This document shows, one piece after another, positions 19,698 through 45,678 of a stretch of 64,000 bases of DNA. A program made the position numbers and the translations under genes. Source of the stretch: Bryobacteraceae bacterium. Its GTDB lineage: Bacteria; Acidobacteriota; Terriglobia; Bryobacterales; Bryobacteraceae. Position 1 is the stretch's first letter; each line of letters starts with the position of its first letter. Below the pieces are notes generated by a model. The model was not told where the DNA came from. It did no database searches and was given only the letters and a program-made list of their open reading frames with translations. The stretch spans positions 26,277 through 90,276 of the forward strand of contig JBEKPY010000032.1 of assembly GCA_049520275.1 (NCBI GenBank), given 5' to 3'.

Positions 19698-19705
19698 GGC
19701 GCGAT

Positions 19706-22700
19706 CTACGGACGTCGTGCGATCTCCTCTTCGACGAGAGCCGCCAGTTCGTCGTCGGTGAGCGACGCCCCTTCCCCGGCTGCGGCGGCCATGGCGCGCG
19801 GAGATTCCAATGTCAGAACTTCCGACAAGAGATATCCCGCCAGCGCGTCGAGCGTCGGATAGGCAAATAGTAAAGTCGCCCGCAGCGGACGGCCCAGGGA
19901 CGCTTCCAGCCGCGTCTTCAATTCCAGAGCCAGGATGGAGTCGAGACCCAGGTCGAACAAACCCTGGCGTGGAGGAATCGCCTGGGAGTCCTTCAGCTTC
20001 AGCGCGTCTCGAACCAGGTTCGCAAGCTGTAAAAGCAGGAACTGGCGACGCTCGCCGGCGGGCATCTCCGTCAAACGGAGCATCAGTTCGCTCGGCCCGG
20101 CGGGACGATCCGTGACGGGCATCATCTGGGAAAGGAACATGGAATTGCGCGCGGCGGGATCGAAACGGAAGAAGCGCTCCCAATCGATGTTGGCGACCCC
20201 GACCTGAGTCCGGCCGCTGCGCATAAGAATCTCAAGGATCCCGAAGCCGGTTTCCGGGGGCAGGGCCTCAACTCCAAGGTGCGCGAGCTTTGCGTGCGCG
20301 AGACGGCCGTACTCCGTGGCAGCGTGGCCGATCTCCTTCCACGGTCCCCAGTTGATGCTGAGCGCGGGGCGGCCCTCGGCGCGGCGCTTCCATGCCAGCG
20401 AATCCAGGGCGCTGTTCGCGGCGGCGTAGTTTCCCTGACCGGGCATGGGCACCAGCGAAGCCATGGACGAAAACATCACGAAGTAGTCGAGGGGATCATC
20501 GCGCGTGGCGTTGTGGAGGTTCCATGCGCCGTTCATTTTCCCCGAGGCGCTACGCTCGAAGCGCGTCCAGTCCTGCGCGCGGAGCAGGGCGTCGTCGAGT
20601 GTCCCCGCCAGATGGAAAACACCGCGAATAGATGGCATCGTGCGCCGTATCGCGGCAAGAGCGGCTGAAGTTTCCCGCTCGCTGCCGAGGTCGGCCTGGA
20701 AGACAGGGGCGCTTCGCGAGATCGATACGACATTCCCCGCCCCACGCTCGCGCAACCACGCCGCGAGCCGGGTGCCGATTCCGCCGGTTCCGCCGGCGAT
20801 CACATAGGTCCCGTCGGCCGCCAACGCGAGGGGAGCATCCTGGGAAACCGATCCCTCCGCCTGCAACCTGGCCACATGAAGCCCACCGCGCCGGACGCCA
20901 AGCAGGTCTTCGCTTCCGCAATCGCGAATCGCCGCGAGAAGTTCCCGCGCCGCCTCCTGCGGACTCGATAGAGGATCGAGGTCTACCAGCCCTCCCCAGA
21001 ACTCGGAGTGCTCCACCTTGATCGTGCATCCGAGTCCCCAGAGCTGAGCCTCCGTCACGCTCCCAGCGTCTCCATCGAGCACCGGCATGGCGCCTGTCGT
21101 CGCGATCCACAGGCGAGCGTCCTCTCTCAGCTCATGCCGGGCCAGAGACTGCGCCGCCTGAAGCAGGCCCTCCAATCCGTTGCCGCCGAGATAAACAACT
21201 CGCTCCGCCAGCGATTCATCGGGGATTTGGCCGGCACGCCGGCAGGTTCCCCCCGAGCCGCGAATGAGCGCTTCCAGTTGCGCCGCGATGTCGCGGCTGT
21301 CTTCGAGAATCAGCCAGTCTCCCGCATCGGCGCCCCGCGCCGCGGTCCTGGATACCGGGATCCACGCACGCCGGTAGAATTGATAATCCCGCTGCGACTG
21401 CAACGGAGCCGCGGAACTGCGCATGCGCTGAAGGCGAAGCCCGCGGATTTCAAAGAGCAGCGAACCGTCCAGACCGTAGACGGAAACATCCCCTTCCCGA
21501 ACTTCGGATGAACCGCCCGCACCCAGCACGGCGTGACTCCACGCTGGCTGGGGCGTCGCTGTTACCACGCGCAACTCCCGAACGCCGGCAGGAATGTAAA
21601 TCGAATCCTCCAACAGATTCGCTGGCAGCGCGGCCAGCGCCACCCGGCTGCAAGCGTCCAGAAATCCGGGATGAACGGTGTAGACCCCGGAACCAGTGTC
21701 TGTCGCCTGAATCCTGCCCAGAGCCTCCCCGTCACGCCGCCAGATTCTTCCAATGCATTGGAGTTGTTCGTCTATCTGAAGCCCGTAGCTCCGCAGCTTC
21801 TCGTGAAACGCGGTTCCCGGCCATTCCTCAGTGCAGCGGCTCTGTATCGTGGCCGGATCGAATCGCTGCGTGGCGGGAGGTGGCGCGGGAAGCGCCGAAG
21901 TGTCGTGCAAATCCTTGAGGCGCGCCAGGTGCTGGAGATTGCTCAGGATGAGATTCGCATCGGGGCCGAAATCCAGCAGGCACGCAATCTCCGTCGCGCC
22001 AATCGATTCCAGGCGCTGCACCAGCGGGAGGCACGTTTCCGGTGTGCCGATCAGTCCGCGCGACTCCGCAAAGCGATCATAGAGGAACTCCACGAACTCG
22101 CTCAAATCGCTCGGACTCAGCGTCCGTACATCCACGTTCTGGCCACGGCTGCGCGCGAGGCCATTCAGCAGGCCGATATTGTTCTGAATGTAGGAGCAGA
22201 ACGGTTTCCTGGCCAGTTGGCGCACCTCCGGCGCGTCGGCGCCCACGAAGGTGTGAAGCATCACGGTCACGACGCCCGATTCGGCATCGTACCCCGCCTG
22301 CGTACGCGCTTCCCGGTATAAGCGGATCTTGCGAGCCAGTTCCTCCTCGCCCTGGTCGAGCAAATGCGTCAGGACATGCGCGCCAAGCTCGCCGGCCCGC
22401 ACATACGATTCGGCTTTGGAGGCCGCTGTTATCCAGACGGGCAGTTCGCGCTGAACCGGGGTCGGGTAGGCTCTGACAGTTGTTTCCCGCCCGAGGCCGT
22501 CCTGTGCGACGACACTCTCACCTCTCCACAAACGCCGGAGGGTGGCGATGGTGGAAGCGAGATGTTCGTAACGGTTGGAATATCGCTCGGGAAAAAACGC
22601 GAAGTCCTCCGGATTCCAACCGGGCGCAAAGGAGATTCCCACTCGGCCGCCCGACAGATTGTCCACCATGGACCACTCCTCGGCGATTCGCAGCGGATGA

Positions 22701-22999
22701 TGCAGCGGAGCCACCACACTTCCCGCCCGAAGCGAGATCCGCTCGGTGACCATCGCGAGGCTGGCATGCAGGACCGCGGGATTCGGATAGAGCGAGCCAT
22801 ACTGCGTAAAGTGCCTCTCGGGAACCCACACGCTGGAAAAGCCGTGCCGGTCGCCGAAGCGCGCACTCTCCACCACGAGACGGTACTTGTCCCCCGCCAG
22901 GGCGTCTTCACTGGCGGCAAAGAACATCAACCCGAACTTCACGAGGATGCCTCCCATTCGTCGCCTGAAGGCGCGCGCTTGCGCACAGGGACCATTCAC
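19706..22999 (-). CDS. PKS subunit: luciferase-like monooxygenase (LLM) domain - DH C-terminal hot-dog - KR - ACP
   Basis: 1097 aa, GTG start. N-terminal ~360 aa is an LLM/FMN-dependent oxidoreductase fold (KFGLMFFAAS... SVWVPERHF). It is followed by the second hot-dog half of a DH (YGLQIDEQLQ, VHPGFLDACSRVA), a KR (IAGGTGGIGTRLA, YAAAN), an ACP (LGLDSILALEL) and a C-terminal docking tail. Overlaps the upstream gene by ~90 nt in another frame. Confidence 0.85.
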   Translation of the reverse strand: MNGPCAQARAFRRRMGGILVKFGLMFFAASEDALAGDKYRLVVESARFGDRHGFSSVWVPERHFTQYGSLYPNPAVLHASLAMVTERISLRAGSVVAPLHHPLRIAEEWSMVDNLSGGRVGISFAPGWNPEDFAFFPERYSNRYEHLASTIATLRRLWRGESVVAQDGLGRETTVRAYPTPVQRELPVWITAASKAESYVRAGELGAHVLTHLLDQGEEELARKIRLYREARTQAGYDAESGVVTVMLHTFVGADAPEVRQLARKPFCSYIQNNIGLLNGLARSRGQNVDVRTLSPSDLSEFVEFLYDRFAESRGLIGTPETCLPLVQRLESIGATEIACLLDFGPDANLILSNLQHLARLKDLHDTSALPAPPPATQRFDPATIQSRCTEEWPGTAFHEKLRSYGLQIDEQLQCIGRIWRRDGEALGRIQATDTGSGVYTVHPGFLDACSRVALAALPANLLEDSIYIPAGVRELRVVTATPQPAWSHAVLGAGGSSEVREGDVSVYGLDGSLLFEIRGLRLQRMRSSAAPLQSQRDYQFYRRAWIPVSRTAARGADAGDWLILEDSRDIAAQLEALIRGSGGTCRRAGQIPDESLAERVVYLGGNGLEGLLQAAQSLARHELREDARLWIATTGAMPVLDGDAGSVTEAQLWGLGCTIKVEHSEFWGGLVDLDPLSSPQEAARELLAAIRDCGSEDLLGVRRGGLHVARLQAEGSVSQDAPLALAADGTYVIAGGTGGIGTRLAAWLRERGAGNVVSISRSAPVFQADLGSERETSAALAAIRRTMPSIRGVFHLAGTLDDALLRAQDWTRFERSASGKMNGAWNLHNATRDDPLDYFVMFSSMASLVPMPGQGNYAAANSALDSLAWKRRAEGRPALSINWGPWKEIGHAATEYGRLAHAKLAHLGVEALPPETGFGILEILMRSGRTQVGVANIDWERFFRFDPAARNSMFLSQMMPVTDRPAGPSELMLRLTEMPAGERRQFLLLQLANLVRDALKLKDSQAIPPRQGLFDLGLDSILALELKTRLEASLGRPLRATLLFAYPTLDALAGYLLSEVLTLESPRAMAAAAGEGASLTDDELAALVEEEIARRP

Positions 23000-28010: not shown

Positions 28011-29108
28011 CTACGCGTGAGTGCTCGCGGCATTCCCGATCTCCAGCGGCGCATACCTTCGTTCCGGCCAGGGCGTGGGAACGAAGCCGTCGATAATCGT
28101 GCCAATGCCCTCGGCTCGGGCGAGGTCCACCGCCAGGCGCGCCACCGCGAGATCCAGAATGCCCAGCCCAAACGGGCTGAAGATCACCGGCTCGCCGCCA
28201 CGGCGGGCTTTTTGCCCCGATAGAATCGCGCCCAGAGTGGCGCGGATACAATCGCGGTTCCCCGCCTTCTGCACCGCCAGATCAAGCGAAGTCCGATTGG
28301 AACAAACATGCTCGACGTCGTCGACAACGTTGTCGCCCGCGAGGATTACTTCCGGCGCGAGATCGCGCAACGAGATATGTAAGATGACCGAATTCTCGCG
28401 GCAGCCGTCCAGGTTGTCCAGATGCGGAATCGTTGCGTTGGTCGCCAGGCTGACGACATCCGCTTCGCGGAACAGGGTAGTGGCCGAAGGCGCCAATGCG
28501 ATGTGTCGAGTCCCGCAGAGATCGGGGCATTTCTCCAAAAACCTGCGAGCCTGGGCCGGGTCTGTATCGAAGAGCAGGAACTCCGCAATTTCGGGATGCG
28601 TCGCCAGCAGGAACCGGACAGTCTCGAAATTGATCGGACCGCAACCCAGAATGCCAACCGAATGAATCGAGCGGCCCTCGCGAAGGACCGATGCCGCCAG
28701 CGCCGCGCTTGCCGCGGTGCGGCACGCGTTGATTACGGACCCTTCCAGGATCGCTTCAGGTTGTCCCGTTCGCGTCGAGTTCAGAATCAATGTGGCGGAG
28801 GCCCGGTCCATGCCCGATCGGATGTTGTCGGGGAAAGATGCTACCCATTTCATTCCCGCGACCTGGAACGACCCGCCCAAGAACGCGGGTTTGGGAATGA
28901 TCCGATCCCTTGTATTGCCGGGGAACCGCAGGAAAGGGCAATTGGGAGCGCTGTAGTCACCCTGCTCCTTCAGCAGGTAAGCTTGCCTGACGCTCTCCAT
29001 GATCGCCGCCTCGCGCCCCTCGAAGAGTCGGATGATCTCGTTCCCGCGCAGCAGAGTCACCCCGCCGGTACTTTCCAGTGAGCGCTTCACGTTAATTTCC
29101 CGATTCAT
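28011..29108 (-). CDS. sbnB: SbnB-like NAD-dependent ornithine cyclodeaminase/mu-crystallin family enzyme (2,3-diaminopropionate biosynthesis)
   Basis: Track ORF 28011..29213. Alignment to SbnB suggests the start MNREINVKRSLESTGG at 29108. OCD/mu-crystallin family Rossmann motif GILGCGPI. Immediately downstream of sbnA, with a 16-nt overlap. Confidence 0.7.
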   Translation of the reverse strand: MNREINVKRSLESTGGVTLLRGNEIIRLFEGREAAIMESVRQAYLLKEQGDYSAPNCPFLRFPGNTRDRIIPKPAFLGGSFQVAGMKWVASFPDNIRSGMDRASATLILNSTRTGQPEAILEGSVINACRTAASAALAASVLREGRSIHSVGILGCGPINFETVRFLLATHPEIAEFLLFDTDPAQARRFLEKCPDLCGTRHIALAPSATTLFREADVVSLATNATIPHLDNLDGCRENSVILHISLRDLAPEVILAGDNVVDDVEHVCSNRTSLDLAVQKAGNRDCIRATLGAILSGQKARRGGEPVIFSPFGLGILDLAVARLAVDLARAEGIGTIIDGFVPTPWPERRYAPLEIGNAASTHA

Positions 29109-30111
29109 GAAGCCATGGCCTGAAAGTGCCGCCGAAATGCGTGGAAATCCATTCCCGTGAGTACACCGTTTCGAAATATCGGTCCCCCCGGTCGCAGAGA
29201 ATCGCCACGACAATTGCCCCCGCCGGAATCCGGGTTCTCATCCTGCCAATCGCGGAAATCACCGCTCCCGAGGAGCCACCGGCCAGGATAGCCTCGCTCT
29301 GGAGCAGACGGAAGCAACCCTCCACGCATTCGCGGTCGGACACATGTACACAGTCGTCTTCGAGGCCGCTCTCGTACAGCGCCGGTCTTCTCGATGCGCC
29401 GTGCCCCGGGATGAGCCGCCGCTGTGGCTCGTTCCCAAAGATCACGCTGCCCACGGCGTCCACCGCGATGATCTTAGTGCTCAAAGCGTGATCGCGCACG
29501 TAGTCCCGGCAGCCGCGCAGCGTGCCACAGGTGCTGGTCGCAACAAACAGATAATCCACCTGGCGCCCCAGATCCCGATCGAGCTCCCCACACATGTCGT
29601 ATTGTGCCCGAGGGTTGCTGGGATTGGCGTATTGATCGATCCAGAAGCTGTCGGCAATGCGCGCCTGCAGTTGTTTCACGCGGTTCAGGCGAGCCGTCAA
29701 AAGCTCTCCGCTAACTGGATCGGCCTGGTCCACGACTTCAACCTCAGCCCCGTATGCCTTCAGGATTGCGATGTGGCTTACTGTCGTCCGGCTGTCGACC
29801 ACGCACACGAAACGAAGCTTCAACAATGCGCACGCTTGCGCCAGTCCGACGCCGAGATTGCCCGAGCTCGACTCGATGATGGTTGTGCGCGGCCCTACAT
29901 CTCCGCGGTCACAGGCGTCCAGCAGCATTCCCCGAGCAGATCGGTCCTTACCACTGCCTCCGGGATTCATCATTTCGAGCTTGGCGTACAGCGCGAAATC
30001 GATCGGTGCGAACACCCGCGTGAGCTGCACCAGGGGAGTATTCCCCACCGCAGCAAGAACGCCGCTCGCCTCCGTGGAAGTGTCTAACCGGGCTTTTGCT
30101 TCAGCGGCCAC
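29092..30111 (-). CDS. sbnA: SbnA-like PLP-dependent cysteine-synthase-family enzyme (N-(2-amino-2-carboxyethyl)-glutamate synthase)
   Basis: 339 aa; GNTPLV, PGGSGKDRSA lysine-PLP motif, GTGGT-like glycine loop. Pairs with the sbnB homologue as in staphyloferrin B Dap supply. Confidence 0.7.
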   Translation of the reverse strand: MAAEAKARLDTSTEASGVLAAVGNTPLVQLTRVFAPIDFALYAKLEMMNPGGSGKDRSARGMLLDACDRGDVGPRTTIIESSSGNLGVGLAQACALLKLRFVCVVDSRTTVSHIAILKAYGAEVEVVDQADPVSGELLTARLNRVKQLQARIADSFWIDQYANPSNPRAQYDMCGELDRDLGRQVDYLFVATSTCGTLRGCRDYVRDHALSTKIIAVDAVGSVIFGNEPQRRLIPGHGASRRPALYESGLEDDCVHVSDRECVEGCFRLLQSEAILAGGSSGAVISAIGRMRTRIPAGAIVVAILCDRGDRYFETVYSREWISTHFGGTFRPWLHESGN

Positions 30112-30716
30112 TCTCAGTTCTCCTCACCGCCCATGGAGATGTTCCGGCTGGAGACGGTAACCCCTGGCATTCCAAGGACGGCAGTACGCAGCGGTTCCAA
30201 AGGGGTCGGCAATCTCCACGCAGGACGAGTAGGCTCCCATTCCCAGCCATAGTGATACGGCCTGGGACAAAGCTGCTGAGATGCCTGGCGCCAAAGAACC
30301 GGGCTGTTCTCGCAGACAGAAACGGGACAGTGACGTCGATATACAATTCCTCCAACGGTCTCGATCAGCCACGAAATCCTCATAGCGCCGCTCTAAGACG
30401 ACCGCAGAATCGTCGCGCGGCGCAGGAATTATTGTCATCATCGCGAAGTCCCCGGCGCGAGTCAAGGAAAATCTTTTTTGTTTTTCAAAGTCGCCGCTCA
30501 CCGCCACCGTGCGTTCTCGCCAAGAGTAACCCTGTCGGCCGACGCCGGACATTCGGCATCGGCAAGGGCGAACAACGGACGAAATTAGCGGTGTTTCCCG
30601 ACCGAGTCGTGTACCGGGGGAAACACTGGTTGTGAGATCGCGAGGTCTGTGGTACCCATAGTAGATCTTGGGGATTTCGACCTGGGTTTGAAATCCTGTT
30701 CGCCAGAGGACGCCAC

Positions 30717-33284
30717 GTGCAGGTAGTTCAGATTTTGCTGCTCGAGTCTCCGGAAGCGTGGAAGCGTGTGTTGATCGTCGCGGGCATAGCTGGCGCTGGC
30801 AACGCGGCTATCCTGGGGATCATCAACCGCAGCGCCTTGCTGGCCCCAACCGACAGCAACCTGCTCATTCTCGGCCTCTTGCTGCTGTTCGGGATGTGCA
30901 TGCTGGCGCTCTTCATGGGGAAGCGCTACGCGTTCATCCAGGCCTCCGTGATCGTGGAGAACATGATCAGCGACCGGCTGATCCGCGTCTCCAACAAGAT
31001 CCGCCACACGGAGCTGGAACTGGTGGAGAGCCTGGGGCACGGCGAGCTGTTCACCCGGCTCTGCCAGGACACGGCCCTGATTTCGCAGTCCGGACTGATG
31101 CTGGTGGACGCGGCGCAGCAGTCGCTGGTGCTGCTGTTTTGTTTGTGTTACATCGCGGTGCTCTCGCTCCCGGCGTTCGTCGTCACCGTGGGCACCATCG
31201 CGGCTGGCGTGGCCGTCTATTTCCGGCATGCCGGGAAGTTGCAGGCGCTGCTGCACCGGCTCAAGGGAAAGGAATCGCGTCTGGTGGACGCGCTGGGTCA
31301 CATGGTCGACGGATTCAAGGAAATCCGGATGAATCGAAAGAAAAGCGACGCGGTATTCGTTGAGTTCACGGAGTTATCCGAAGGCGTGCGCGCGCTGAAG
31401 ATCGACACCCAGGCCATGTTTCTGGTCGACATCATGTTGTCGGACCTGGTGTTCTATTCGCTGCTGGCTGTCGTCGTTTTCCTGCTGCCGCGCTTCCACC
31501 ACACCACGGGCGCCGCCGTGCTCATGACCACGGCGGCGATCCTGTTCATCATGGGCCCGTTGCAACTGGTGGTGCAGGCGGCTCCGGTGCTGCAGCGGGC
31601 CCAGGCGGCCATCGCCGACCTGGCGGTCCTCGAAGAGAAGCTCGACCGCGCCGGCGCCAGCGGCGAGGGGCCTGCCGACGGCCGCTGGCGGGGTTTCCAA
31701 ACGATCTCCATCGATTCCGTGGTTTTCGCCTACGCCGAGCGCGATGGCGTCAATGGCGCCTTCTCGGTGGGGCCGCTGAGCACGCAGATCCGCCGCGGCG
31801 AGACTATTTTCATTGTGGGCGGCAACGGCAGCGGCAAGACCACCGCGCTCAAGCTGCTGACCGGGCTGTACTTCCCCCACAGCGGGGCCATTCTGGTGGA
31901 TCGCGAGTTGCTGACGCGCGGCAACGTGCAGAACTACCGCGAGCTTTTTTCCACCGTTTTCGCGCAGTTTCATCTGTTCGACCGGTTGTACGGGGCGGAG
32001 GACGTCGATCCCCGCTCGGTGCAGGCGATTCTGGAGGAAATGGAGCTGGCGGGGAAAACGCGCTTCGAAGGGGGACGTTTCAGCAACCTCAATCTGTCCA
32101 CGGGCCAGCGCAAACGTCTGGCCCTGGCGGTGACTCTGCTGGAAAACAAGGAGATTCTGGTGTTCGACGAGTGGGCCGCCGACCAGGATCAGCACTTTCG
32201 CAGGTACTTTTATGAAGTGGTGCTGAAGCGGCTCAAACAGGAAGGCCGGACGGTGATCGCGGTCACCCACGACGAACGCTTCTGGAAGCACGCCGACCGC
32301 ATCATCAAAATGGACTACGGCGCCATCGTGGAAGATGCCGCGTCGGAGGCGCCGGACACCGATGGTGCGCCGGCCTTCGGGCCACGCCGGGGGAGTGTCG
32401 ATGCCGGGGAGCGGCGCCGAATGAAACGAATTTACGACTGGTTGTCCGGGGTGCCCGGAAGATTGAAGGCTTTCCTGAAACGGCAGATCCCGTACCTGCT
32501 GGTTCTCGGGTTCATCCTGGTGTTCCTGCTGGTCTACTTTTACAACAGCATGTTTGTGGCCATCCACCCGGGAGAACTCGGGGTGCTGTGGAGCATGCTG
32601 GGCGGCGGCACCGTGGTGCACACGGTGTACCGGGAAGGCCTCCACTTTGTCCTGCCCTTCAACCACATGTATGTCTACAACGCCCGCAAGCAGCGCTTCG
32701 CCGACTCCATCGATGTGCTGACCGTCGACGGGCTGACCGTGCACGTGGAGTACTCGGTGCGCTACTATCCGAATCCGGACCTGCTGCCGCTGCTGCATCA
32801 GCGGGTGGGCCCCGACTACCTCAACGTGGTGGTGCGGCCGGAAGTGCGCTCGGTGATCCGAACCGTGTTCGGACAGTACAAGCCGGAGGAGATCTACACC
32901 ACCCAGAAGGCCATCCAGGAACGCGTTTCCGTGGATTCCAAGATTCAGATGGAAGCGCGCTTTGTCTCGGTGGACGACGTGCCGCTGGAGCGCATCTCGC
33001 TGCCGCCGACCTTGGCCCAGGCCATCGAATCCAAGCTGGCGCAGCAGCAACTGGACGAGGAGTACGTCTACCGGCTCGCCGTGGCCGGCAAGGAAGCGCA
33101 GCGGAAACTGATCGAGGCCGGGGGGCAGAAGGCCTACAACGACGTGGTGAACCAGAGCCTGACCCCGTCGTTGCTGGAGTGGCAGGGCATTCTGGCCACC
33201 CTGGAGCTGGCCAAATCTCCCAACGCCAAGGTGGTCATTGTGGGCGGCAAGAACGGCCTCCCCATCATTCTCGGGAAGGAGTGA
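30717..33284 (+). CDS. SyrD/PvdE-type cyclic-peptide ABC exporter (TMD+NBD) fused to a C-terminal SPFH/band-7 (HflK/C-stomatin-like) domain
   Basis: 855 aa, GTG start. Six-TM N-terminus, Walker A GGNGSGKTT, signature LSTGQRKRLAL, Walker B ILVFDEWAADQD, H-loop AVTHDE; then an extra TM (IPYLLVLGFILVFLLVYFY) and an SPFH domain (GELGVLWSMLGGG...HFVLPF...VDGLTVHVEYSVRYY). Confidence 0.8.
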   Translation: MQVVQILLLESPEAWKRVLIVAGIAGAGNAAILGIINRSALLAPTDSNLLILGLLLLFGMCMLALFMGKRYAFIQASVIVENMISDRLIRVSNKIRHTELELVESLGHGELFTRLCQDTALISQSGLMLVDAAQQSLVLLFCLCYIAVLSLPAFVVTVGTIAAGVAVYFRHAGKLQALLHRLKGKESRLVDALGHMVDGFKEIRMNRKKSDAVFVEFTELSEGVRALKIDTQAMFLVDIMLSDLVFYSLLAVVVFLLPRFHHTTGAAVLMTTAAILFIMGPLQLVVQAAPVLQRAQAAIADLAVLEEKLDRAGASGEGPADGRWRGFQTISIDSVVFAYAERDGVNGAFSVGPLSTQIRRGETIFIVGGNGSGKTTALKLLTGLYFPHSGAILVDRELLTRGNVQNYRELFSTVFAQFHLFDRLYGAEDVDPRSVQAILEEMELAGKTRFEGGRFSNLNLSTGQRKRLALAVTLLENKEILVFDEWAADQDQHFRRYFYEVVLKRLKQEGRTVIAVTHDERFWKHADRIIKMDYGAIVEDAASEAPDTDGAPAFGPRRGSVDAGERRRMKRIYDWLSGVPGRLKAFLKRQIPYLLVLGFILVFLLVYFYNSMFVAIHPGELGVLWSMLGGGTVVHTVYREGLHFVLPFNHMYVYNARKQRFADSIDVLTVDGLTVHVEYSVRYYPNPDLLPLLHQRVGPDYLNVVVRPEVRSVIRTVFGQYKPEEIYTTQKAIQERVSVDSKIQMEARFVSVDDVPLERISLPPTLAQAIESKLAQQQLDEEYVYRLAVAGKEAQRKLIEAGGQKAYNDVVNQSLTPSLLEWQGILATLELAKSPNAKVVIVGGKNGLPIILGKE

Positions 33285-33288
33285 AGGG

Positions 33289-34470
33289 GTGAAGAAGACA
33301 CTGGCCGTCGTTCTGCTATTGGCGCTTGGAATCGCCCTGTACCTCCTGCTGCGGCCCTCCGGGGCCCCGATGGCCCGCGGTTCGCCGGACGAAATCCTGA
33401 TCGGTGTGGCCTGGCCGTTCGCCGTGAATCAGGACGGCATGGACAAAGGGCTGATTCTGGCCCAGGAGGAGATCAATGTCCGGGGGCTGCTGGGGAAGCG
33501 CATCCGGCTGTTGATGCGCGACGATCGCATGAACCGCGAGCAGTCGAGAAGGCTCGCGATCGAGTTCTCGCGCAACCCGTCGATGGTGGCCGCCATCGGC
33601 TACTACGACGACAAGTTCGCCGTGCGAGCTTCGGCCATCTTCGAACAGAGCAGCCTGCTGCACATCGTAGCGGGCGCTAACAACACCTATATGACCACGC
33701 ATGGTTTCCGGTATCTGATCCGCTCGGTGCTGCCGAACAACCTGATCGCGCGCAGTCTGGCCCGCCTGTGCACCGACCGCGGCTACCGCAACTTCGCCAT
33801 GGTCGCCGAGGATGGTCCGTTCGGAGAGGACCTGATGTTCCAGATCGGAACGGCGCTGGGCGCCCTGAACGCCAGCACGGTCTACGAGTCGACATACGTA
33901 CCAGGGGAGGTCGATTTCCGCGAGACCGTCGACCAACTGAGAGAAGCCGGAGGAGATGCCATCCTCTTTCTGGGGTTAGAACACGAAGGCGCCGCGTTCA
34001 TCAAGGCGGCTCGCGGCATGGGGCTGAAAACCCCGATTGTGGGGGCCTTCAGCGACACGCCCGAAATGCACGAAATCGCGGGTCCGTTATTGGAAGGCGT
34101 GATGTTCTACGAAATCTACGACGTGAATTCTCCAACGCCGGAGAACCGCGCCTTCGTGGCCAGGTACCGCCATCGCTTCGGCGAAGATCCGGAACCCTAC
34201 GCCGCGCAAGGATACGACGCATTACGAATTCTGGCGAAGGCAATCGGAACCACGGGGTCCACCAACGGTCTCGACCTGGCATACGCGATCCGCTACATGG
34301 ATCCGTGGGAGGGAGCCAATGGTTCTTACAAGTTCGATTCCACCGGGGAACTGGACGACAAGGACCTCTACCTGAAGATGTTCCGTGGAGGCAAACCGGT
34401 CGTGATTGCGACCAGCCATCCGGTTGCTCCGGCCCCCCCCGTGCACGACCAACTGCTTGTTCCTTATTGA
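33289..34470 (+). CDS. Periplasmic substrate-binding protein, type-1 PBP (branched-chain amino acid/Liv-type family)
   Basis: Track ORF starts at 33238; likely start is GTG 33289 (VKKTLAVVLLLALGIALYLL signal/TM), preceded by GGAAGGAG. PBP type-1 fold similarity (IGVAWPF..., GYYDDKFAV...). Confidence 0.65.
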   Translation: MKKTLAVVLLLALGIALYLLLRPSGAPMARGSPDEILIGVAWPFAVNQDGMDKGLILAQEEINVRGLLGKRIRLLMRDDRMNREQSRRLAIEFSRNPSMVAAIGYYDDKFAVRASAIFEQSSLLHIVAGANNTYMTTHGFRYLIRSVLPNNLIARSLARLCTDRGYRNFAMVAEDGPFGEDLMFQIGTALGALNASTVYESTYVPGEVDFRETVDQLREAGGDAILFLGLEHEGAAFIKAARGMGLKTPIVGAFSDTPEMHEIAGPLLEGVMFYEIYDVNSPTPENRAFVARYRHRFGEDPEPYAAQGYDALRILAKAIGTTGSTNGLDLAYAIRYMDPWEGANGSYKFDSTGELDDKDLYLKMFRGGKPVVIATSHPVAPAPPVHDQLLVPY

Positions 34471-34483
34471 CAATGGACAGAAT

Positions 34484-34666
34484 ATGACCCAATATCTTGT
34501 TATTGCGTGGATCCTCGGCAGTTTAATTATTGCCCTGTGCGGCTCCAGGTTTCGGTTCGGATTCTGGGGGTACTTCTTTGGGTCGTTGCTGTTGACGCCC
34601 ATCATCGGCCTGCTTCTATTACTGGCGGCCGTTCCACCCCGTCCCCGGAAATCCGAACGTGTGTAA
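34484..34666 (+). CDS. Small two-TM membrane protein (60 aa)
   Basis: MTQYLVIAWILGSLIIALCGSRFRFGFWGYFFGSLLLTPIIGLLLLLAAV; ATG at 34484 14 nt after the SBP stop. Confidence 0.4.
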   Translation: MTQYLVIAWILGSLIIALCGSRFRFGFWGYFFGSLLLTPIIGLLLLLAAVPPRPRKSERV

Positions 34667-35636: not shown

Positions 35637-36614
35637 ATGATAAGAACAACGGCCATGGCGCCGGCGCTCGCGGTGTGTCTGGCCATTTCGCTTTACGCCG
35701 CGGAATCCGACACTCAGAGTGCTCCCAGCGGGCAGCAGCCCCCAGCGGCGAGCCAGCCACCCCCACAGACAGCAAACGCACAGCAGGCGCCCGCAGCAGG
35801 CACGCCGCCGGCGACCGCGGCCAGCGCGCCGGCCGCGCCCAAAAAACAGGAAATCGGCAGATGGTGGGAGAAGAGTTCGCGGGAGTACAGTCCGCTGCTG
35901 CCCCAGTGGCTGTTTCACGCCGAAGGCACGCTGTCATATATGAACGCGTCGGGAAACGCCAGCGGGAGCACATTCGACACCACCGACAGGGTAGACGTCC
36001 GGAAGGCTCGCTGCACGGCCCATTCGGTTGTCCGGTGGAGCCGCCAGGATATGGTGTACGGATTCGGTCAGGGGGCGGTGAATTACACCGAGCGAACCCT
36101 GCGCGAACAGGTGGATTGCGACGCCACGAAGACCCTCTACTTCGTTGTGGGTATCGAAGACTACCAGAACACCCTGTGGTACATGGATAAGCGGCTGAAA
36201 GCGTACGTCGGCGGGGCCGCGACCCTGTTCGAGAATGAGAAACAGCAGCTCACTTTTACGGGCGGTGTCGGACACGCGAACTTCACCTTCGACCGCGCCC
36301 GAATCATGGAACTGCCGTTCCCAACCAACATAAACTACAATCCGAGTTCGGGCGGCGCGCTGGGTATCCAAACCTGGCGCTGGAAGGCATGCTCCCGCTT
36401 GACCTTCAACGAAGTTGCCTCTTACATGAAATATTTCGACTCCTATCTCGGCTATAACTGGGAGATCGATTTGAGCGGGGATGTCCCTATCGACAAGCGG
36501 TTTTCCTTCCACGTGACGTATCGCATACAGGACCAGGCCAACAGCATCGTCACGGCGCTGCATGTGTTTGAGCAGGACCGCGCTTTCCTGTTGGGCGTCA
36601 AGGCATCGATGTGA
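35637..36614 (+). CDS. Secreted/outer-membrane protein of unknown function (DUF481-like beta-rich), signal peptide, Pro/Ala/Gln-rich linker
   Basis: 325 aa; signal peptide MIRTTAMAPALAVCLAISLYAAE; low-complexity PQTANAQQAPAAGTPPATAASAPAAP; alternating hydrophobic C-terminal strands. Confidence 0.4.
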   Translation: MIRTTAMAPALAVCLAISLYAAESDTQSAPSGQQPPAASQPPPQTANAQQAPAAGTPPATAASAPAAPKKQEIGRWWEKSSREYSPLLPQWLFHAEGTLSYMNASGNASGSTFDTTDRVDVRKARCTAHSVVRWSRQDMVYGFGQGAVNYTERTLREQVDCDATKTLYFVVGIEDYQNTLWYMDKRLKAYVGGAATLFENEKQQLTFTGGVGHANFTFDRARIMELPFPTNINYNPSSGGALGIQTWRWKACSRLTFNEVASYMKYFDSYLGYNWEIDLSGDVPIDKRFSFHVTYRIQDQANSIVTALHVFEQDRAFLLGVKASM

Positions 36615-40759: not shown

Positions 40760-42073
40760 TCAGTTCATCAGGTCGGCGGAGTGCGGGTCAATCGCCTGGT
40801 TCGCCAGCTTTACGAAAGTCCCAAGGGGGCAGTCGAAAGTCGCATTGCCGGCGCTGCAACCGGGGATGAAGACCGGGGCGCTGGGCGGCGGCGCAGCGAG
40901 GGTCAGGGGCGTGAGATTGCGCAACTGGTCCAGAGTCTGCCCGACGTAAGAGGCCCGGACGATGTACTCGCCAGTGTTTTGGGACTGACGGAGTTGGAGC
41001 ACGAGAGCGCCGCCCGGAGAGCAGAAGTCTTTCTGATATCCCGGCAGAAGCCAGTCGAGGTGGAACAGGCCGGCTAATCCGGTGATGTCGGTGTCCGAAG
41101 CGATCAGCACGATCACTTTCGTCGACGGATTCCCCAGCGAGCCCGTCAGCGTATTCCCGGTGGCTGACTGGACCATGGATCGAACGATGTGCGAAGCCAG
41201 ATTGGAACTCTGCACTCTATCCAGATAGGGCGTGCGGAACTCCAGATCGAGGACCAGGTTAGGAACGCGAGAGGTCTGGCTAACGCCGTCGGCAGTCAAC
41301 TGGCCCCACCCGGCCGGCAGCCCATCGGCGTACTCCATAAGGAAAGGATCGATGGCCAGGGCAACGTCGGTCAGCCCTCCGAGGTCGACCGGTGCGCCGC
41401 CCGTCCCGGCTGTGACGGCAAATGGAATCGCGGTGACGTCGAACTGATTTGCCGGGGCTGCGGGCGCCGGAGTCTCGCTCGCGGGATAATTCAACAGGAC
41501 CGAGCGCGTGAGGGCGATTTCCGGGGCCCAGGCGGAGGCCAGCAGTTGCAGATTGCCGCCGACACGACCGTTCACGGCCGCAATCGCCATCCGCGAATCC
41601 AGCAGCGCGACGCCGGCGCCCACCGGATTGAACAACGGATCGATGGCCGTCGTCGGGGTCAGGGATTGGACGTTGGCCGGGGCCGCCGGGAGAAAGCCCG
41701 CCCAGAAGTGTTGCGCGGAGTCAACGGTCCGCTGGATCGCGTTGGCATGAAAGAAAACGAAGCTGGCGTCGGCGGAGTCGTTGCCGGTCAGCAGTCCTTC
41801 ATCAGTGAGCCAGAGACGGTAGTAGCCGCCGAGGATGGTCTCCAGTTTCTCACCGTTGGGGGTCAGAATGCCCGGTAGAGGGCCGACGCCGAAATCCGGG
41901 TAGTCTTGCACGGAGAAGGTGTTGAGGACGCCGGATGGCGCGACCGGAGACCGCACGTTATGACGGCCGAAAACGATCACCTGCTTGAGCTGGGTGTCAT
42001 CGACGGGCTGAGCTGCCAGCCCGAAGACGCAGACAAGAACGGGAAGGAAGAGCCGAAGGGAATGGATTGTCAT
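40760..42073 (-). CDS. Histidine acid phosphatase (branch 2, phytase/AppA-Agp-like), secreted
   Basis: 437 aa; signal peptide; RHG motif VIVFGRHNVRSP; C-terminal Cys pattern PGCSAGNATFDCPLG. Translationally coupled to the upstream paralogue. Confidence 0.75.
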   Translation of the reverse strand: MTIHSLRLFLPVLVCVFGLAAQPVDDTQLKQVIVFGRHNVRSPVAPSGVLNTFSVQDYPDFGVGPLPGILTPNGEKLETILGGYYRLWLTDEGLLTGNDSADASFVFFHANAIQRTVDSAQHFWAGFLPAAPANVQSLTPTTAIDPLFNPVGAGVALLDSRMAIAAVNGRVGGNLQLLASAWAPEIALTRSVLLNYPASETPAPAAPANQFDVTAIPFAVTAGTGGAPVDLGGLTDVALAIDPFLMEYADGLPAGWGQLTADGVSQTSRVPNLVLDLEFRTPYLDRVQSSNLASHIVRSMVQSATGNTLTGSLGNPSTKVIVLIASDTDITGLAGLFHLDWLLPGYQKDFCSPGGALVLQLRQSQNTGEYIVRASYVGQTLDQLRNLTPLTLAAPPPSAPVFIPGCSAGNATFDCPLGTFVKLANQAIDPHSADLMN

Positions 42074-42075
42074 AC

Positions 42076-43500
42076 TTAGTTCACCAGGTCGGCGGATTGC
42101 GGGTCGATTACGTGGTTCGCTATCGTCACGAAGGTCCCGAGGGGACAGTCGAAGTTGGCATTATCGACGCTGCAACCGGGGATGAACACCGGGGCGCTGG
42201 GCGGCGGCGCAGCGAGCGTCAGGGCGGTCTGATTGCGTAGCTGGTCGAGCGTCTGAGAGACGTAGGAGGCGCGGACGATATACTCCCCGGTGCTCTGCGA
42301 CTGGCGGAGCTCGAACACCAACGCGCCGCCCGGACCGCAGACGTCGGCTTCGTAACCCGGCAGAAGCCAGTCGAGATGGAACAGGCCGGCGAGTCCGGTG
42401 ATATTGGTGTTCGAACCCGTTAGTACGATCGCTTTGGTCGCCGGACTTCCCAGCGCGCCTTTCATCGCATTCCCGGTGGCCGCCTGAACCATGGAGCGCA
42501 CTATGTGGGAGGCCACATTCGAACTCTGCACTCGGGCCAGATAGGGGGTGCGGTATTCCAGATCGAGGATGACGTTGTACAAGCGGAAGGTCTGGTTGAT
42601 ACTGCCAACGGTCAACTGGCCCCAACCGGCCTCCGCAGCCGGCAGTCCATCCGCGTACTCCATGACGAAAGGATCGATAGCGCCGCCAACATCGGCCAGC
42701 CCTCCAAGGTCCACCGGCAAAGTGGTGCTTCCGGCCGCAACGCCGATGGGAATGGAGGTGACGTCGATCCTGCCTGTCGGGGTCGCCGGGACCGGAGTCT
42801 GGCTGACGGGATAGTTGAACAAAATGGAGCGCGTGAGGGCGAGTTCGGGCGCCCAGGCGGAGGCCAGGGACTGTGGATTAGCGCCGAGGCGTCCGTTCAC
42901 GGCCGCGACCGCCCTGCGGTAATCGAGCAGCGCGACTCCCGCGTCCACCGGATCGAACAGCGGGTCGATGGCCGGTGGGCTGTAGGAATTGACGTTTACA
43001 GTGGCCGCCGGGAGCATGCCGGCCGCGAAGGCTTGCGCGGTGCCAACAATGAGCGGAGTCCCATTGGCCCGGAGGTATACGAAGGCGGCATCGGCTGCGT
43101 CATTACCGGTCAGCAGTCCCTCCTGGGTGAGCCACAGTCGGAAATACCCGCCGAGGATAGTCTCATCCGTGCCACCGTTGTGGGTGAGGACGCTGATACC
43201 CGGCTCGAGGAACGCCGGGTAGGGCAGCGCGGAGAAGGCGTCGAGGGCGGTGTTCGGCAAAATAGGAGTCCGCACACCATGACGGCCGAAGATAATAACC
43301 TGCTTGAGCTGGGTATCGTCTGCGGGCCGCGCCGTGGGGTTGGACAAGCGTGGCTCGCCGGTGAGCGTGGGGCTCAGCGGCGTAGTCGCTGGGCCCATAT
43401 TGAGCGCGGGTTGTGCGTAGGCCGCCGCGCCGGCGATAATTAACGCAAGCGTCAGGCCCGCCGATGAGAGCGGAAAACGCTCGCAAACTTTTTCTGCCAT
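42076..43500 (-). CDS. Histidine acid phosphatase paralogue, secreted
   Basis: Track ORF 42076..43641. Likely start ATG 43500 (MAEKVCERFPLSSAGLTLALIIAGAAAYA), preceded by AGGAGA. RHG motif VIIFGRHGVRTP. About 55 % identical to the downstream paralogue, including the C-terminal Cys motif. Confidence 0.75.
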   Translation of the reverse strand: MAEKVCERFPLSSAGLTLALIIAGAAAYAQPALNMGPATTPLSPTLTGEPRLSNPTARPADDTQLKQVIIFGRHGVRTPILPNTALDAFSALPYPAFLEPGISVLTHNGGTDETILGGYFRLWLTQEGLLTGNDAADAAFVYLRANGTPLIVGTAQAFAAGMLPAATVNVNSYSPPAIDPLFDPVDAGVALLDYRRAVAAVNGRLGANPQSLASAWAPELALTRSILFNYPVSQTPVPATPTGRIDVTSIPIGVAAGSTTLPVDLGGLADVGGAIDPFVMEYADGLPAAEAGWGQLTVGSINQTFRLYNVILDLEYRTPYLARVQSSNVASHIVRSMVQAATGNAMKGALGSPATKAIVLTGSNTNITGLAGLFHLDWLLPGYEADVCGPGGALVFELRQSQSTGEYIVRASYVSQTLDQLRNQTALTLAAPPPSAPVFIPGCSVDNANFDCPLGTFVTIANHVIDPQSADLVN

Positions 43501-43595
43501 TTGCGGGAGTCTCCTTAGTCTGTGAAGTCCTGCGTGCGGCGGTTGCCCGGGGTCAATCTGAAGCGAAGCGATCGGCTTTCGACAGATGACGGAAG

Positions 43596-43636
43596 CCAGA
43601 GCGGTCCCAGGGGCCGCCTCAAGTAGAGCTATCGGC
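43596..43636. promoter_or_regulatory. Conserved upstream motif, copy 2 (~100 nt upstream of the tandem acid-phosphatase operon)
   Basis: ccagagcggtcccaggggccgcctcaagtagagctatcggc; see copy 1. Confidence 0.45.
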
Positions 43637-43861
43637 TTCATGCATTCGCACCATTACACCGGGGCGCCAGCCGAAGGCGGCATGATCGGGAAGCACCGGT
43701 GGCGCTATTGGCGGCCACACCCAATCAAACGGGGTCAACCTGCCGCGCGTGCCGGTGAAGATGCCGGATGGCGCCATCGAGCGGCGGATCAGGTCCTCGA
43801 TCGATCCTCGCTGAGATGCTTGATTAGCGATCTTCGACGAATGGCTCGCACGACGCCACCC

Positions 43862-44004
43862 TCGCTAGAGCCAATACTGTTCAGTTTGCGCGGGAGGGAC
43901 ACGCGGCGCAAGCCGCGTTCGTTCGGTGCTGTGCAAAAACGCGGCTTGCGCCGCGTGTCCGATTGGCGGACGAAGGCCAAAGTGAACAGTATTGGTCGCT
44001 AGAG
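43862..44004. mobile_element. MITE-like nested palindromic element: 9-bp direct repeats (TCGCTAGAG) flanking 13-bp terminal inverted repeats (CCAATACTGTTCA / TGAACAGTATTGG) around a perfect 23-bp-arm inner palindrome; the inner hairpin is an intrinsic terminator
   Basis: DR 43862-43870 and 43996-44004; TIR 43871-43883 and 43983-43995; inner arms 43897-43919 and 43938-43960 (GGACACGCGGCGCAAGCCGCGTT). On the minus strand this reads CGCGGC-GCAA-GCCGCG followed by TTTTT, right after the secretin stop (TAG at 43999-44001, inside the right DR). Confidence 0.5.
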
Positions 44005-45678
44005 CAGCGAGATCGGCTTTGTTTCCGTGCCCGTCAGGAGCGCGGGCGTGGGGAGATCGGTGGGCGGAAGGTTCAACAGCCGCGGCTTGATCACCAGCAG
44101 CGCGCCGGCGCGGTCGGTGTTGCGCGTGTTGTTCCCGAGCAGCCGGCCCAGCACCGGCACGTTCGCGAGGCCGGCGATGCCGCTGAAACTGGCCGCGTCG
44201 GTCCTGCTTATCAGCCCCGTGAGCACCGCCCATTCGCCCTCGTGAAGACGGACGGTGGATTGGAATTTCCGGTTGTTGATTGCCGGTATGCCGCTGGGCT
44301 GCACCGCCCCGAGCAGTGTGTAGGAGGCCTCCACCTCCAGGGTCACCTCTTCTGTTCCGTGAATATGCGGGGTGATTTTCAGCTCGAAGCCGAGATCCTG
44401 GAACTGAATGGTGGGCGGAGGCACATAGGACGCGGCCGCCGTACCGGTGCCGGACGCCGAGGTGGTGAAGGTACTGCTGATCAGCGGATACTTGCTGCCC
44501 ACGTGCAACAACGCAGGCTGGCCCTGGGACGCCGTCAGATGCGCCCGGTACACGGTGCTGGTAATGGCCTTTGTCACGGTGGCAAACAGGTTCGCCTGGG
44601 CAATGCCGATCCCGAGGATGGTGGCGCCGCCGCCAAACGTGAGGAAACTGGAGAAGCCGGACGGAATCGCGGTCGTGGCCACGTAATTCGCGATCGTCCC
44701 GAAGTCGATCAGGGGGAACGAAGACGGCAGCCCCGCGCCCCACTGGAGCGAATCCGAGTCGTCAATGTCCAGCAATTCCACTTCGAGGTCCACCTGCGGG
44801 TGAGCCCGCAGCAGGCTTTCCAGCAGGGCCTGGGCCGGGCGAACCTTGGAGATCTGATCGCGCAGCAGCACCATGCGGTTCGTGGTGTCCACCATCACGC
44901 GCTGGATGTCCATGGTGGAGCGCACGGCGTTGACCATTTCCTGAAGTTCCTGGGTGTTGACCGTCTCCGGGATGGGAATAGTCACCGAGACGGTTCGTTC
45001 GAACTCCTTGCGCTTGGCGGGAGTGTCGGCGGCGACAAAGACCAGCCGGTCGCCCACGGGGATGACAAACGTCCCGGTGGCGTCTTCCAGAGCGCGCAGC
45101 GCAGTCCGGTAGTCCACCTGTTGCATCTGGAACCGGGTAGGGGGAGACGGAGAGTACTCCGAGTCGAACACCACGAGCAGGCCAAAGGCCTTCGCCACCT
45201 GCTCAAACAGAGACTTGCCGTCGCCCCGGACATCGAAGTCCCGTAGGGCCGGTGTGGCTTTTAGTTCGGTGGGAGGCAGGGGTTTGCGGGCTTCGGCGGC
45301 GTCACTGGCGGTGAGTTCGCCAAACAGGCTGTCATCGAGACCGGCATCCGGTTTGGCCTCCTTCCCGATAGCGTCGGCTTTGTCTTTCAGGCCGGGGTCC
45401 AGTTTGGCGACGGATTCGAAATCGCGTATTCGCAGAGCGTACGCCGGATTGGCTGGGTCCAGTGCATATGCATGTGAATAAAGGACATAGGCGCGAGCTA
45501 CATCGCCTTTTCGCTCGGCCTTCGCGGCTGCCCGGGCCAGTTGGGAGGCGGCCTCGCTGGCGTCGCTGGCGGCCGCGAAACATCCCGCAAAACAGGCCGC
45601 AAACACGACCAGGGCAATGCAAGGGCGAAACCCCACAACAGGCATGACGGCGCCCGGAGCCGGAACGTGGACAAGCAA
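43999..45678 (-). CDS. Secretin-family outer-membrane protein (GspD/PilQ/CpaC-like) with N-terminal TPR-like region
   Basis: 559 aa; C-terminal secretin block (GEWAVLTGLISRTDAASFSGIAGLANVPVLGRLLGNNTRNTDRAGALLVIKPRLL); hydrophobic N-terminus with Cys (possible lipobox). An internal start at 45645 (MPVVGF...) is also possible. Confidence 0.7.
   Translation of the reverse strand: MLVHVPAPGAVMPVVGFRPCIALVVFAACFAGCFAAASDASEAASQLARAAAKAERKGDVARAYVLYSHAYALDPANPAYALRIRDFESVAKLDPGLKDKADAIGKEAKPDAGLDDSLFGELTASDAAEARKPLPPTELKATPALRDFDVRGDGKSLFEQVAKAFGLLVVFDSEYSPSPPTRFQMQQVDYRTALRALEDATGTFVIPVGDRLVFVAADTPAKRKEFERTVSVTIPIPETVNTQELQEMVNAVRSTMDIQRVMVDTTNRMVLLRDQISKVRPAQALLESLLRAHPQVDLEVELLDIDDSDSLQWGAGLPSSFPLIDFGTIANYVATTAIPSGFSSFLTFGGGATILGIGIAQANLFATVTKAITSTVYRAHLTASQGQPALLHVGSKYPLISSTFTTSASGTGTAAASYVPPPTIQFQDLGFELKITPHIHGTEEVTLEVEASYTLLGAVQPSGIPAINNRKFQSTVRLHEGEWAVLTGLISRTDAASFSGIAGLANVPVLGRLLGNNTRNTDRAGALLVIKPRLLNLPPTDLPTPALLTGTETKPISLL

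Follow-up and report, generated by a model that had tools for sequence, protein, structure and literature searches.

A single ABC exporter-SPFH reading frame in a Bryobacteraceae genome, probably formed by a 36-nt loss within a gene cassette that recurs beside nonribosomal peptide and polyketide clusters

In a 64,000-nt stretch of DNA from a Bryobacteraceae bacterium (hereafter, the window), an ATP-binding cassette (ABC) exporter of the cyclic-peptide type and a prohibitin-like SPFH protein are encoded by one open reading frame (ORF), which is recorded at NCBI as MGA3026009.1 on a 116-kb contig of a metagenome-assembled genome (MAG). This fusion is most probably a singleton, generated when the loss of 36 nt joined a bicistronic gene pair, and as such private to one MAG and not a selected design. 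Judged by gene order, what is conserved is not the fusion but a cassette, composed of an SPFH gene and a periplasmic binding protein (PBP) gene as the core, usually a DUF697 gene, and often an exporter gene of the family TIGR01194. The parts of the fused ORF are listed below.

30717-33284, plus strand: fused ORF of 855 aa, GTG start, no internal stops
30717-31616, plus strand: ABC transmembrane domain (TMD), approximately aa 1-300 (profile matches and hydropathy)
31704-32339, plus strand: nucleotide-binding domain (NBD), aa 330-541 (profile and motifs)
31818-31841, plus strand: Walker A motif GGNGSGKT, aa 368
32094-32108, plus strand: ABC signature motif LSTGQ, aa 460
32154-32171, plus strand: Walker B motif ILVFDE, aa 480
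32339/32340, plus strand: deletion junction (comparison with contigs from the same population)
32340-32420, plus strand: 27-aa linker ASEAPDTDGAPAFGPRRGSVDAGERRR, the former ABC-SPFH intergenic spacer, translated in the fusion
32406-32423, plus strand: Shine-Dalgarno (SD)-like GGGGAG (32406-32411), 9-nt spacer and native SPFH ATG (32421-32423), from the sequence
32487-32543, plus strand: seventh transmembrane (TM) helix, aa 591-609, IPYLLVLGFILVFLLVYFY, by which the native SPFH protein is anchored at its N-terminus (hydropathy)
32562-33068, plus strand: SPFH/Band_7 domain, aa 616-784 (Pfam)
33069-33284, plus strand: C-terminal helical (coiled-coil) region, GGKNGLPxILG tail and stop codon (alignment and a low-confidence model)

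A preliminary description of this DNA had reported one uninterrupted ORF containing a SyrD/PvdE-family exporter with intact ABC motifs, an extra TM helix and an SPFH domain of about 280 aa, and each of these parts was confirmed. The profile TIGR01194 (cyclic peptide export ABC transporter) aligns with residues 8-541 over its positions 11-551 of 554 and gives 340.5 bits against the curated cutoff of 286.2. The YojI-type model PRK10522 is a near-match, and Pfam ABC_tran is found with the e-value 1.3e-25. Walker A, signature and Walker B motifs are all intact. The hydrophobic helices of the TMD were placed by crude hydropathy at around aa 18-36, 40-70, 138-156, 239-257 and 268-286, and their count is approximate. 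Ala541, where the NBD ends, is also the last residue that the fusion has in common with the unfused allele described below. Residues 616-784 match Pfam Band_7/SPFH with the e-value 4.4e-28 and 99 bits against the cutoff of 23.6 (profile positions 3-169 of 176), in agreement with the SPFH assignment by hidden Markov model (HMM). The SPFH part comprises aa 569-855 (287 aa), and its C-terminal GGKNGLPxILG tail is conserved. Two HMM-significant domains in one open frame of 2.6 kb far exceed what chance would produce.

The fused protein is on record once among about 15 billion proteins (cluster look-up, NCBI entry), and the look-up of the exact product in a gene-position index found nothing on record. 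The domain-architecture search for ABC-SPFH fusions, which the preliminary description had proposed, was performed with HMMER using the full 855-aa protein as the query against 1.84 billion representative proteins, and no such fusion was found among the best 150 matches. The long matches in this search were tandem ABC-ABC proteins, and the best SPFH-only match was 292 aa. No ABC-SPFH fusion was found among the best matches from a set of 5.8e9 proteins, either. Two matches of 834 and 792 aa were considered as fusions in the reverse order, SPFH-ABC, and rejected because Pfam gave duplicated ABC domains only.

Close homologues (up to 89-92% identity) are about 544 aa long and cover the ABC part alone. 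Gene calling on the contigs of close relatives gives two genes, ABC (544 aa) and Band_7 (284-314 aa). The 90%-identity cluster of the fused protein includes six other ABC-derived members from JGI and ENA contigs, all of which end with ...GAIVEDARIA. A genome-wide scan revealed that a stop closes the ABC frame ahead of the SPFH gene in all 27 other ABC-SPFH loci. The two genes are in the same frame at about a third of these loci, as expected by chance, and programmed read-through of the TGA between them was rejected on this basis.

The alignment around the junction with relatives indicates that the window is without a short segment that carries the TGA of their ABC genes. Relatives from the same population have an extra 36 nt at 32339/32340, C[A/C]GGATCGCCTGATCTCGTTGCCGGGGGCGCAGGGG, whose placement is ambiguous by one C. 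This segment encodes Arg-Ile-Ala-TGA and eight spacer codons (12 codons). Sequences from the same population include a stand-alone SPFH protein of 287 aa (P0121), which is 100% identical to aa 569-855 of the fusion and is encoded by three contigs (L077-L079) from three samples (Logan SRR13621567, JGI 3300040943 and JGI 3300041955). The Logan contig L077 (SRR13621567) matches the window at 100.000% identity along 2,988 nt and carries the 36 nt with the TGA. L078 and L079 are 99.94% identical to the window over 1,746 nt and 99.87% over 1,555 nt, respectively, and both carry the 36 nt. In this unfused allele, the ABC protein ends with ...VEDARIA followed by TGA, and the SPFH gene is located in the same frame as the ABC gene, 96 nt after the TGA, with a spacer that is otherwise stop-free. 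The lost 36 nt correspond to 12 codons including the TGA, and thus the ABC and SPFH genes were joined in frame.

The proposed event would therefore start from two genes, for a TIGR01194 (SyrD/PvdE/YojI-type) half-transporter and a prohibitin-like SPFH protein, and would remove the TGA together with the three ABC codons before it and eight codons of the spacer. The product would be arranged in the order of TMD-NBD in the cytoplasm, the 27-aa linker, the native SPFH N-terminus, the TM helix and the SPFH domain. The preliminary description had foreseen that a stop or frameshift caused by sequencing error could separate the two parts. The reverse was found: the frame is open in the window, and the separating stop is present in all other sequences and missing in the window only.

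The spacer itself (32340-32420) is stop-free in the SPFH frame, and three lineages encode a similar peptide here (…GPRRGxVxxGERRx-MKR). In a related contig (L001:7659-7739), an upstream ATG turns the spacer peptide into an N-terminal extension of a 314-aa SPFH call, and other SPFH homologues are 305-326 aa long. The spacer may be degenerate or alternative coding sequence, and it is proposed that it reads through cleanly as a linker for this reason. The native SPFH ATG within the fused ORF is the start of the stand-alone P0121, and free SPFH protein may still arise from the retained SD-like sequence and this ATG. The linker shows no remodelling, and the fusion event looks recent and roughly neutral.

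The same comparison leaves room for an artefact, in which the organism has two genes and the 36 nt were dropped during MAG assembly, polishing or by polymerase skipping. The fused protein was found once among about 15 billion proteins, and in a MAG, while at least three contigs at 99.9-100% identity keep the 36 nt. The segment is very GC-rich, and a stem-loop can be drawn whose base lies nearly at the deletion endpoints; with RNA parameters, the deleted segment nearly coincides with an inner stem-loop. However, the stability of this stem-loop is no higher than that of shuffled sequence (z = 0.19). The loss is clean, a multiple of three, and associated with 1 nt of microhomology, unlike repeat collapse or homopolymer error. 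The flanks match L077 at 100% identity across 3 kb with no further indels, and the multi-kb polyketide synthase (PKS) and nonribosomal peptide synthetase (NRPS) ORFs of the window are intact, which argues that the assembly is not generally indel-prone. In addition, L077 starts exactly 30 nt ahead of the first allele-distinguishing base, as a graph branch at k = 31 would give; the Logan assembly was presumably made with this k. The first distinguishing base is A in L077 and L079, C in L078 and G in the deletion allele, and the A/C single-nucleotide polymorphism represented by L078 explains the branch (L077:1-31) equally well. The artefact is a serious possibility, and a real but private allele is, roughly judged, the likelier of the two. 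A hairpin-mediated deletion was also considered and rejected: the DNA fold of -21.6 kcal/mol compares with -22.1 +/- 2.7 kcal/mol for the shuffles, and no special structure is indicated.

The SPFH protein of 287 aa was compared with solved structures. The nearest ones are prohibitin-2 and prohibitin-1, with e-values from 1e-14 to 1e-10. The alignments span the SPFH domain into the coiled coil, and the alignment to PHB2 reaches residue 261 of 287. HflC is marginal in this search, with the chains 7vhp and 7wi3 as weak matches. The HflC and HflK equivalog models TIGR01932 and TIGR01933 were missed, with 26.2 bits against 134.4 and 19.7 bits against 159.4, respectively. No paired HflK/HflC paralogues were found; one SPFH gene is present in the window and in all related loci. 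Homologues are named "prohibitin family protein" at NCBI and "regulator of protease activity HflC" at JGI. The family assignment rests on HMM and PDB sequence matches. A low-confidence structural model includes a long helix at residues 196-246 of 287.

The anchor helix (aa 591-609) is preceded by four Lys/Arg in 15 residues and followed by none in 15. This distribution predicts an N-in/C-out anchor and a periplasmic SPFH domain. The fusion would thus be topologically legal: the NBD would stay in the cytoplasm, and the SPFH domain would face the periplasm as it does in HflK/C and prohibitins. About 50 residues lie between the end of the NBD and the anchor helix, which is ample length.

Downstream of the fused ORF, the following genes are found in the window.

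33289-34470, plus strand: Liv-type PBP, 393 aa (Peripla_BP_6, 2.9e-42), beginning 4 nt past the SPFH stop
34484-34666, plus strand: 60-aa two-helix membrane protein, no family match, called likewise in L001 and L002
34875-35621, plus strand: DUF697 membrane protein, start uncertain (Pfam; relatives 141-195 aa), a frequent cassette member
35637-36614, plus strand: DUF481-family protein with an N-terminal signal-like helix, in closer relatives only

The SPFH gene is followed by a homologue of the window PBP in about 51 of about 55 loci whose SPFH proteins are at least 42% identical. Few bases separate the two genes in many of the loci (4 nt both in the window and in L080, a Bryobacteraceae chromosome). 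A DUF697 gene is found within about 2.5 kb of the SPFH gene in most of the loci, and a TIGR01194 exporter gene directly upstream of it in about half, with an overlap of 17 nt in L080. As about half of the cassettes are without an adjacent ABC gene, it is the PBP and not the exporter with which the SPFH protein is invariably paired. Distant prohibitin homologues (at most 41% identity), from Zixibacteria and Ignavibacteria, are without the PBP gene.

Close relatives share the gene order of the window: SbnB-SbnA and, divergently, ABC, Band_7, PBP, 60-aa ORF, DUF697 and DUF481. The ABC gene is often much less conserved than the SPFH and PBP genes. In several Bryobacteraceae and Acidobacteriota loci (L021/L080, L017, L020 and L022-L024), the SPFH protein is 72-80% and the PBP 57-70% identical to those of the window, and the ABC protein is 40-43% identical; the values for L021 are 80%, 68% and 41%. 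Both ABC lineages pass TIGR01194, so that two TIGR01194 lineages accompany one kind of SPFH-PBP pair. Apparently, one exporter was exchanged for another, and the SPFH and PBP genes were kept. A two-helix membrane protein of about 54-60 aa recurs (window 34484-34666, L001:9827-10009 and L080:8063-8227), in the PBP-DUF697 interval in the window lineage and in the DUF697-ABC interval in L080.

The association with biosynthetic genes was evaluated by a proxy: an ORF of 700 aa or more that gives adenylation (A), thiolation (T) or ketosynthase (KS) matches and lies within 6 kb of the cassette. Such a megasynthase frame was found in 38 of 41 evaluable loci; the 49 non-redundant loci comprise these 38, three with none, and eight whose flanks are too short to judge. 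All nine loci checked with Pfam have NRPS or PKS genes beside the cassette: the window, L080, Methylobacter tundripaludum, an Acidobacteria MAG, Terriglobales, Geobacteraceae, Chlorobium ferrooxidans, Burkholderiales and Opitutaceae. The order in M. tundripaludum is an NRPS ending with A-T-C-A-T-R, TauD, ABC, SPFH and PBP. The cassette adjoining NRPS/PKS genes spans Acidobacteriota, Chlorobiaceae, Geobacteraceae, Proteobacteria, Opitutaceae and Ozemobacteraceae. This tight and conserved synteny in many phyla indirectly supports the exporter and the SPFH protein acting together.

The PBP has a single N-terminal anchor helix and no lipobox. Its nearest solved relative is 4MLC/4Q6B (1e-42), followed by LivJ/LivK-type proteins. 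As the preliminary description had pointed out, it is a Liv-type binding protein next to the exporter and has no cognate permease: no LivHM permease or LivGF genes were found among the scanned ORFs of the window or in the annotated related loci. The residues Ser79, Thr102, Tyr150, Tyr202 and Glu226 of LivK (1USG), which we take to form the clamp for the alpha-amino and alpha-carboxylate groups, correspond to Asp108, Asn131, Phe178, Leu230 and Phe254 in the PBP, according to a pairwise alignment of about 22% identity that may be off by a residue or so. The replaced residues argue against an ordinary amino-acid binding protein, and this is regarded as a lead. Among 45 cassette PBPs (26-85% identical), conservation averages 68% over the protein, and reaches 80% at N47, 91% at G129, 91% at N131 and 82% at F254. 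Two of the compared positions are less conserved than the average, Phe178 (64%, majority Tyr) and Leu230 (56%). This pattern is slightly more in line with a shared class of ligand, or with a structural role, than with recognition of individual products.

The DUF481 family is presumably one of predicted outer-membrane proteins. YcjF may be equivalent to DUF697, and a connection of DUF697 to the Psp membrane-stress response is a lead only. What has been reported is gene linkage of ycjXF and psp only (PMC3041696).

These features allow a tentative proposal, in which the SPFH protein, the tethered PBP and DUF697 would constitute an uncharacterised envelope module that accompanies NRPS/PKS clusters in at least six phyla and forms a periplasm-facing exit compartment. 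By analogy with prohibitin and HflK/C, the SPFH oligomer would be a periplasm-facing ring or cage on the inner membrane. The tethered PBP would work with this ring and mark the exit site of the amphiphilic product, with the TIGR01194 exporter acting beside or within the SPFH-PBP assembly. The assembly would either pass the product on or protect the membrane of the producing cell. In the window lineage, the product would be passed on toward the downstream DUF481-family protein, and in L080 toward an RND/OEP system. That SPFH, PBP and exporter form a product-exit assembly of this kind is conceivable, if somewhat doubtful, and is argued by analogy.

Several observations weigh against the reading given here, both for the fusion and for its function. 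The fusion is carried by one sequence only. A 30-mer across the fused junction gave no matches in the JGI metagenome_contigs collection, and the positive control for the unfused allele, a 56-mer present in the JGI contigs L078 and L079, also gave none, so that this negative speaks for neither allele; the collection and the protein index do not contain identical records, and negative DNA scans of the former call for a positive control. The functional model is drawn solely from synteny and topology. The exporter would be homodimeric and the SPFH ring would have many subunits, which is a mismatch in stoichiometry. The AlphaFold2 model of the SPFH protein, made from an alignment of 24 sequences, has a mean pLDDT of 54.9 and a pTM of 0.34. 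The share of cassette loci in which no ABC exporter adjoins the SPFH gene, about half, has been given above. Finally, the contig L003 (3117-5660) encodes an ABC protein of 544 aa (P0002) and is without the SPFH, PBP and 60-aa genes, while L004:6001-9970 encodes the same protein. L003 runs from the ABC gene straight to DUF697, and its downstream region differs, with a TPR protein, a tryptophan halogenase and A-T domains. The comparison of L003 and L004 indicates a presence/absence polymorphism, with the SPFH-PBP pair gained or lost among near relatives, and L003 argues that the exporter and the SPFH protein are not mutually dependent.

The window proteins were compared with known systems. The exporter half resembles the TIGR01194 exporters of the SyrD, PvdE and YojI type in its full-length profile match, TMD-NBD order, intact motifs and location adjoining NRPS/PKS genes. 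Unlike these exporters, whose members, including the relatives of 89-92% identity, end at around 544 aa, the window ORF adds the C-terminal TM helix and the SPFH domain. Mitochondrial PHB1/PHB2, which form rings in the inner membrane, are the nearest to the SPFH half by sequence and share the single N-terminal anchor with the bulk across the membrane. However, the window protein is bacterial and a single paralogue, and its partners are a Liv-type PBP, DUF697 and an ABC exporter, not an m-AAA protease. The idea of an SPFH cage around a membrane machine comes from HflK/HflC-FtsH. The Escherichia coli complex is similar in its periplasm-facing SPFH domain with one N-terminal anchor helix, and different in that the window SPFH protein fails the equivalog models, has no second paralogue, and has no FtsH nearby. 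In the NfeD-SPFH operons (stomatin/QmcA-YbbJ type), the SPFH gene is likewise tightly coupled to a gene for a membrane partner, whereas the invariant partner in the cassette is Peripla_BP_6 and no NfeD match was found among the scanned neighbours.

Two reports come close to the arrangement. A pair of ABC exporter and prohibitin genes is located beside a 95-kb NRPS/PKS cluster in Thalassobaculum sp. OXR-137 (PMC12016528). This pair is likened here by its layout, which is as in the window and relatives, but the genes are separate, and the paper assigns no function and is silent on PBP and DUF697. In Amycolatopsis, TurboID proximity labelling placed an SPFH paraslipin near Tba, the exporter of the glycopeptide balhimycin, and a membrane microdomain for biosynthesis was speculated (PMC11960670). 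This is experimental proximity of an SPFH protein to an ABC exporter encoded by a biosynthetic gene cluster (BGC), but it concerns another SPFH subfamily in a Gram-positive host, and the gene is not reported within the cluster. A survey of transporters in BGCs includes no mention of Band_7, Peripla_BP_6 or DUF697 (PMC7849407). In a literature search for Band 7, SPFH or prohibitin with NRPS or BGC, neither an SPFH-PBP-DUF697 cassette nor an ABC-SPFH fusion was found described.

The cassette could alternatively serve uptake or recapture, with the PBP handing a ligand, either a siderophore-like product or a precursor such as L-2,3-diaminopropionate (Dap), to an ABC importer. The PBP has no cognate LivHMGF permease and is always within the cassette, and genes of the SbnA/SbnB (Dap) kind typically belong to pathways for siderophores and peptides. 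Some ABC proteins of the exporter fold import siderophores, such as YbtPQ and IrtAB. However, the exporter-fold importers known to us use no binding proteins, about half of the cassettes have PBP and SPFH genes and no adjoining ABC gene, the ABC half scores as the export subfamily TIGR01194, and the LivK clamp residues for alpha-amino acids are all replaced in the PBP. Uptake is thus unlikely. It is slightly less probable still that the SPFH protein modulates FtsH or another membrane protease in the generic manner of HflK/C and is located next to the exporter by coincidence. Its SPFH membership, HflK/C-like topology and the JGI label of its homologues are in line with such a role. In contrast, the scores for the HflC and HflK models are far below their cutoffs, a single paralogue is present with no ftsH or hflX nearby in the window scans, and the clade is tied to PBP and NRPS/PKS genes across phyla, whereas the distant prohibitins (at most 41%) are without PBP.

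The preliminary description had taken the fusion for an architecture in its own right, in which covalent coupling to an SPFH scaffold would localise lipopeptide export to a microdomain. The frame and the topology allow such a protein, and a functional link is plausible since the genes are conserved neighbours in at least 27 loci, but such an evolved and selected architecture is very improbable and largely refuted by the comparative data, as a second instance is nowhere among the searched sets, all 27 other loci have a stop between the two genes, the same-population members (99.9-100% identity) keep the 36 nt with the stop, and the linker is the old intergenic spacer with untouched internal start signals, indicating a recent event and no sign of adaptation.

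The biosynthetic genes are encoded on the minus strand, divergent from the fused ORF as the preliminary description had observed.

3415-27992, minus strand: hybrid FAAL-PKS-NRPS operon (Pfam)
28011-29213, minus strand: SbnB (equivalog match above cutoff)
29092-30111, minus strand: SbnA (equivalog match above cutoff)
30112-30716, no strand: divergent intergenic region between sbnA and the ABC-SPFH ORF (ORF map)

The SbnA/SbnB region (28011-30111) matches TIGR03944 with 396 bits and TIGR03945 with 400 bits, and its role is the biosynthesis of Dap. The modules of the operon are FAAL-ACP-KS-AT-DH; LLM-DH-KR-ACP; KS/KR/aminotransferase/C-A-T-C; a CmlA-like beta-hydroxylase; and A-T-C. The megasynthase at 8892-20183 (minus strand) has a class-III aminotransferase domain between the KS-ACP and C-A-T modules. 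This points to a beta-amino fatty-acyl unit of the kind known from iturin-type lipopeptides. The protein at 19706-22999 (minus strand) has an N-terminal luciferase-like monooxygenase (LLM) domain fused to DH-KR-ACP, and the CmlA-type beta-hydroxylase is encoded at 7297-8895. Based on the aminotransferase, the LLM-type domain, SbnA/SbnB and CmlA, the product is predicted to be a Dap-containing, beta-hydroxylated lipopeptide. The ABC half of the fusion is a putative exporter of cyclic or nonribosomal peptides, by its subfamily and its linkage to these FAAL-PKS-NRPS genes.

Long ORFs (331-593 aa) without a Pfam match at 1e-5 are located at 1-1458 and 1954-3735 on the plus strand and at 45730-46725, 47243-48301, 50941-52386 and 54635-56760 on the minus strand. 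Some of these may be shadow ORFs; the GC content of the genome is 62%. At 40760-45678 (minus strand), two adjacent histidine-phosphatase (branch 2) paralogues are located beside a secretin-domain protein. A 1013-aa protein with weak matches to a lactonase propeller and a phosphoesterase is encoded upstream of these genes. This region is unrelated to the fusion.

The fusion itself matters little, being a MAG-level ORF that suggests a new architecture unsupported by the population data. The two-gene ABC-SPFH arrangement is already known in annotation and was noted once in print. If the proposal of an envelope module is true, the accidental fusion would be a natural "Rosetta stone", indicating that a tether of 27 residues is enough to accommodate the exporter NBD next to the SPFH N-terminus. 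Worth following is the wide NRPS-linked conservation of a prohibitin-like clade with an orphan, anchored Liv-type PBP. Bacterial SPFH proteins have few defined clients beyond FtsH, and culturable carriers of the cassette, namely Methylobacter tundripaludum (OWC-G53F), Telmatospirillum siberiense (26-4b1), Rhizomicrobium electricum and Chlorobium ferrooxidans, would allow a client linked to self-resistance or to the export of secondary metabolites to be tested. The cassette could also affect the heterologous expression of NRPS/PKS clusters.

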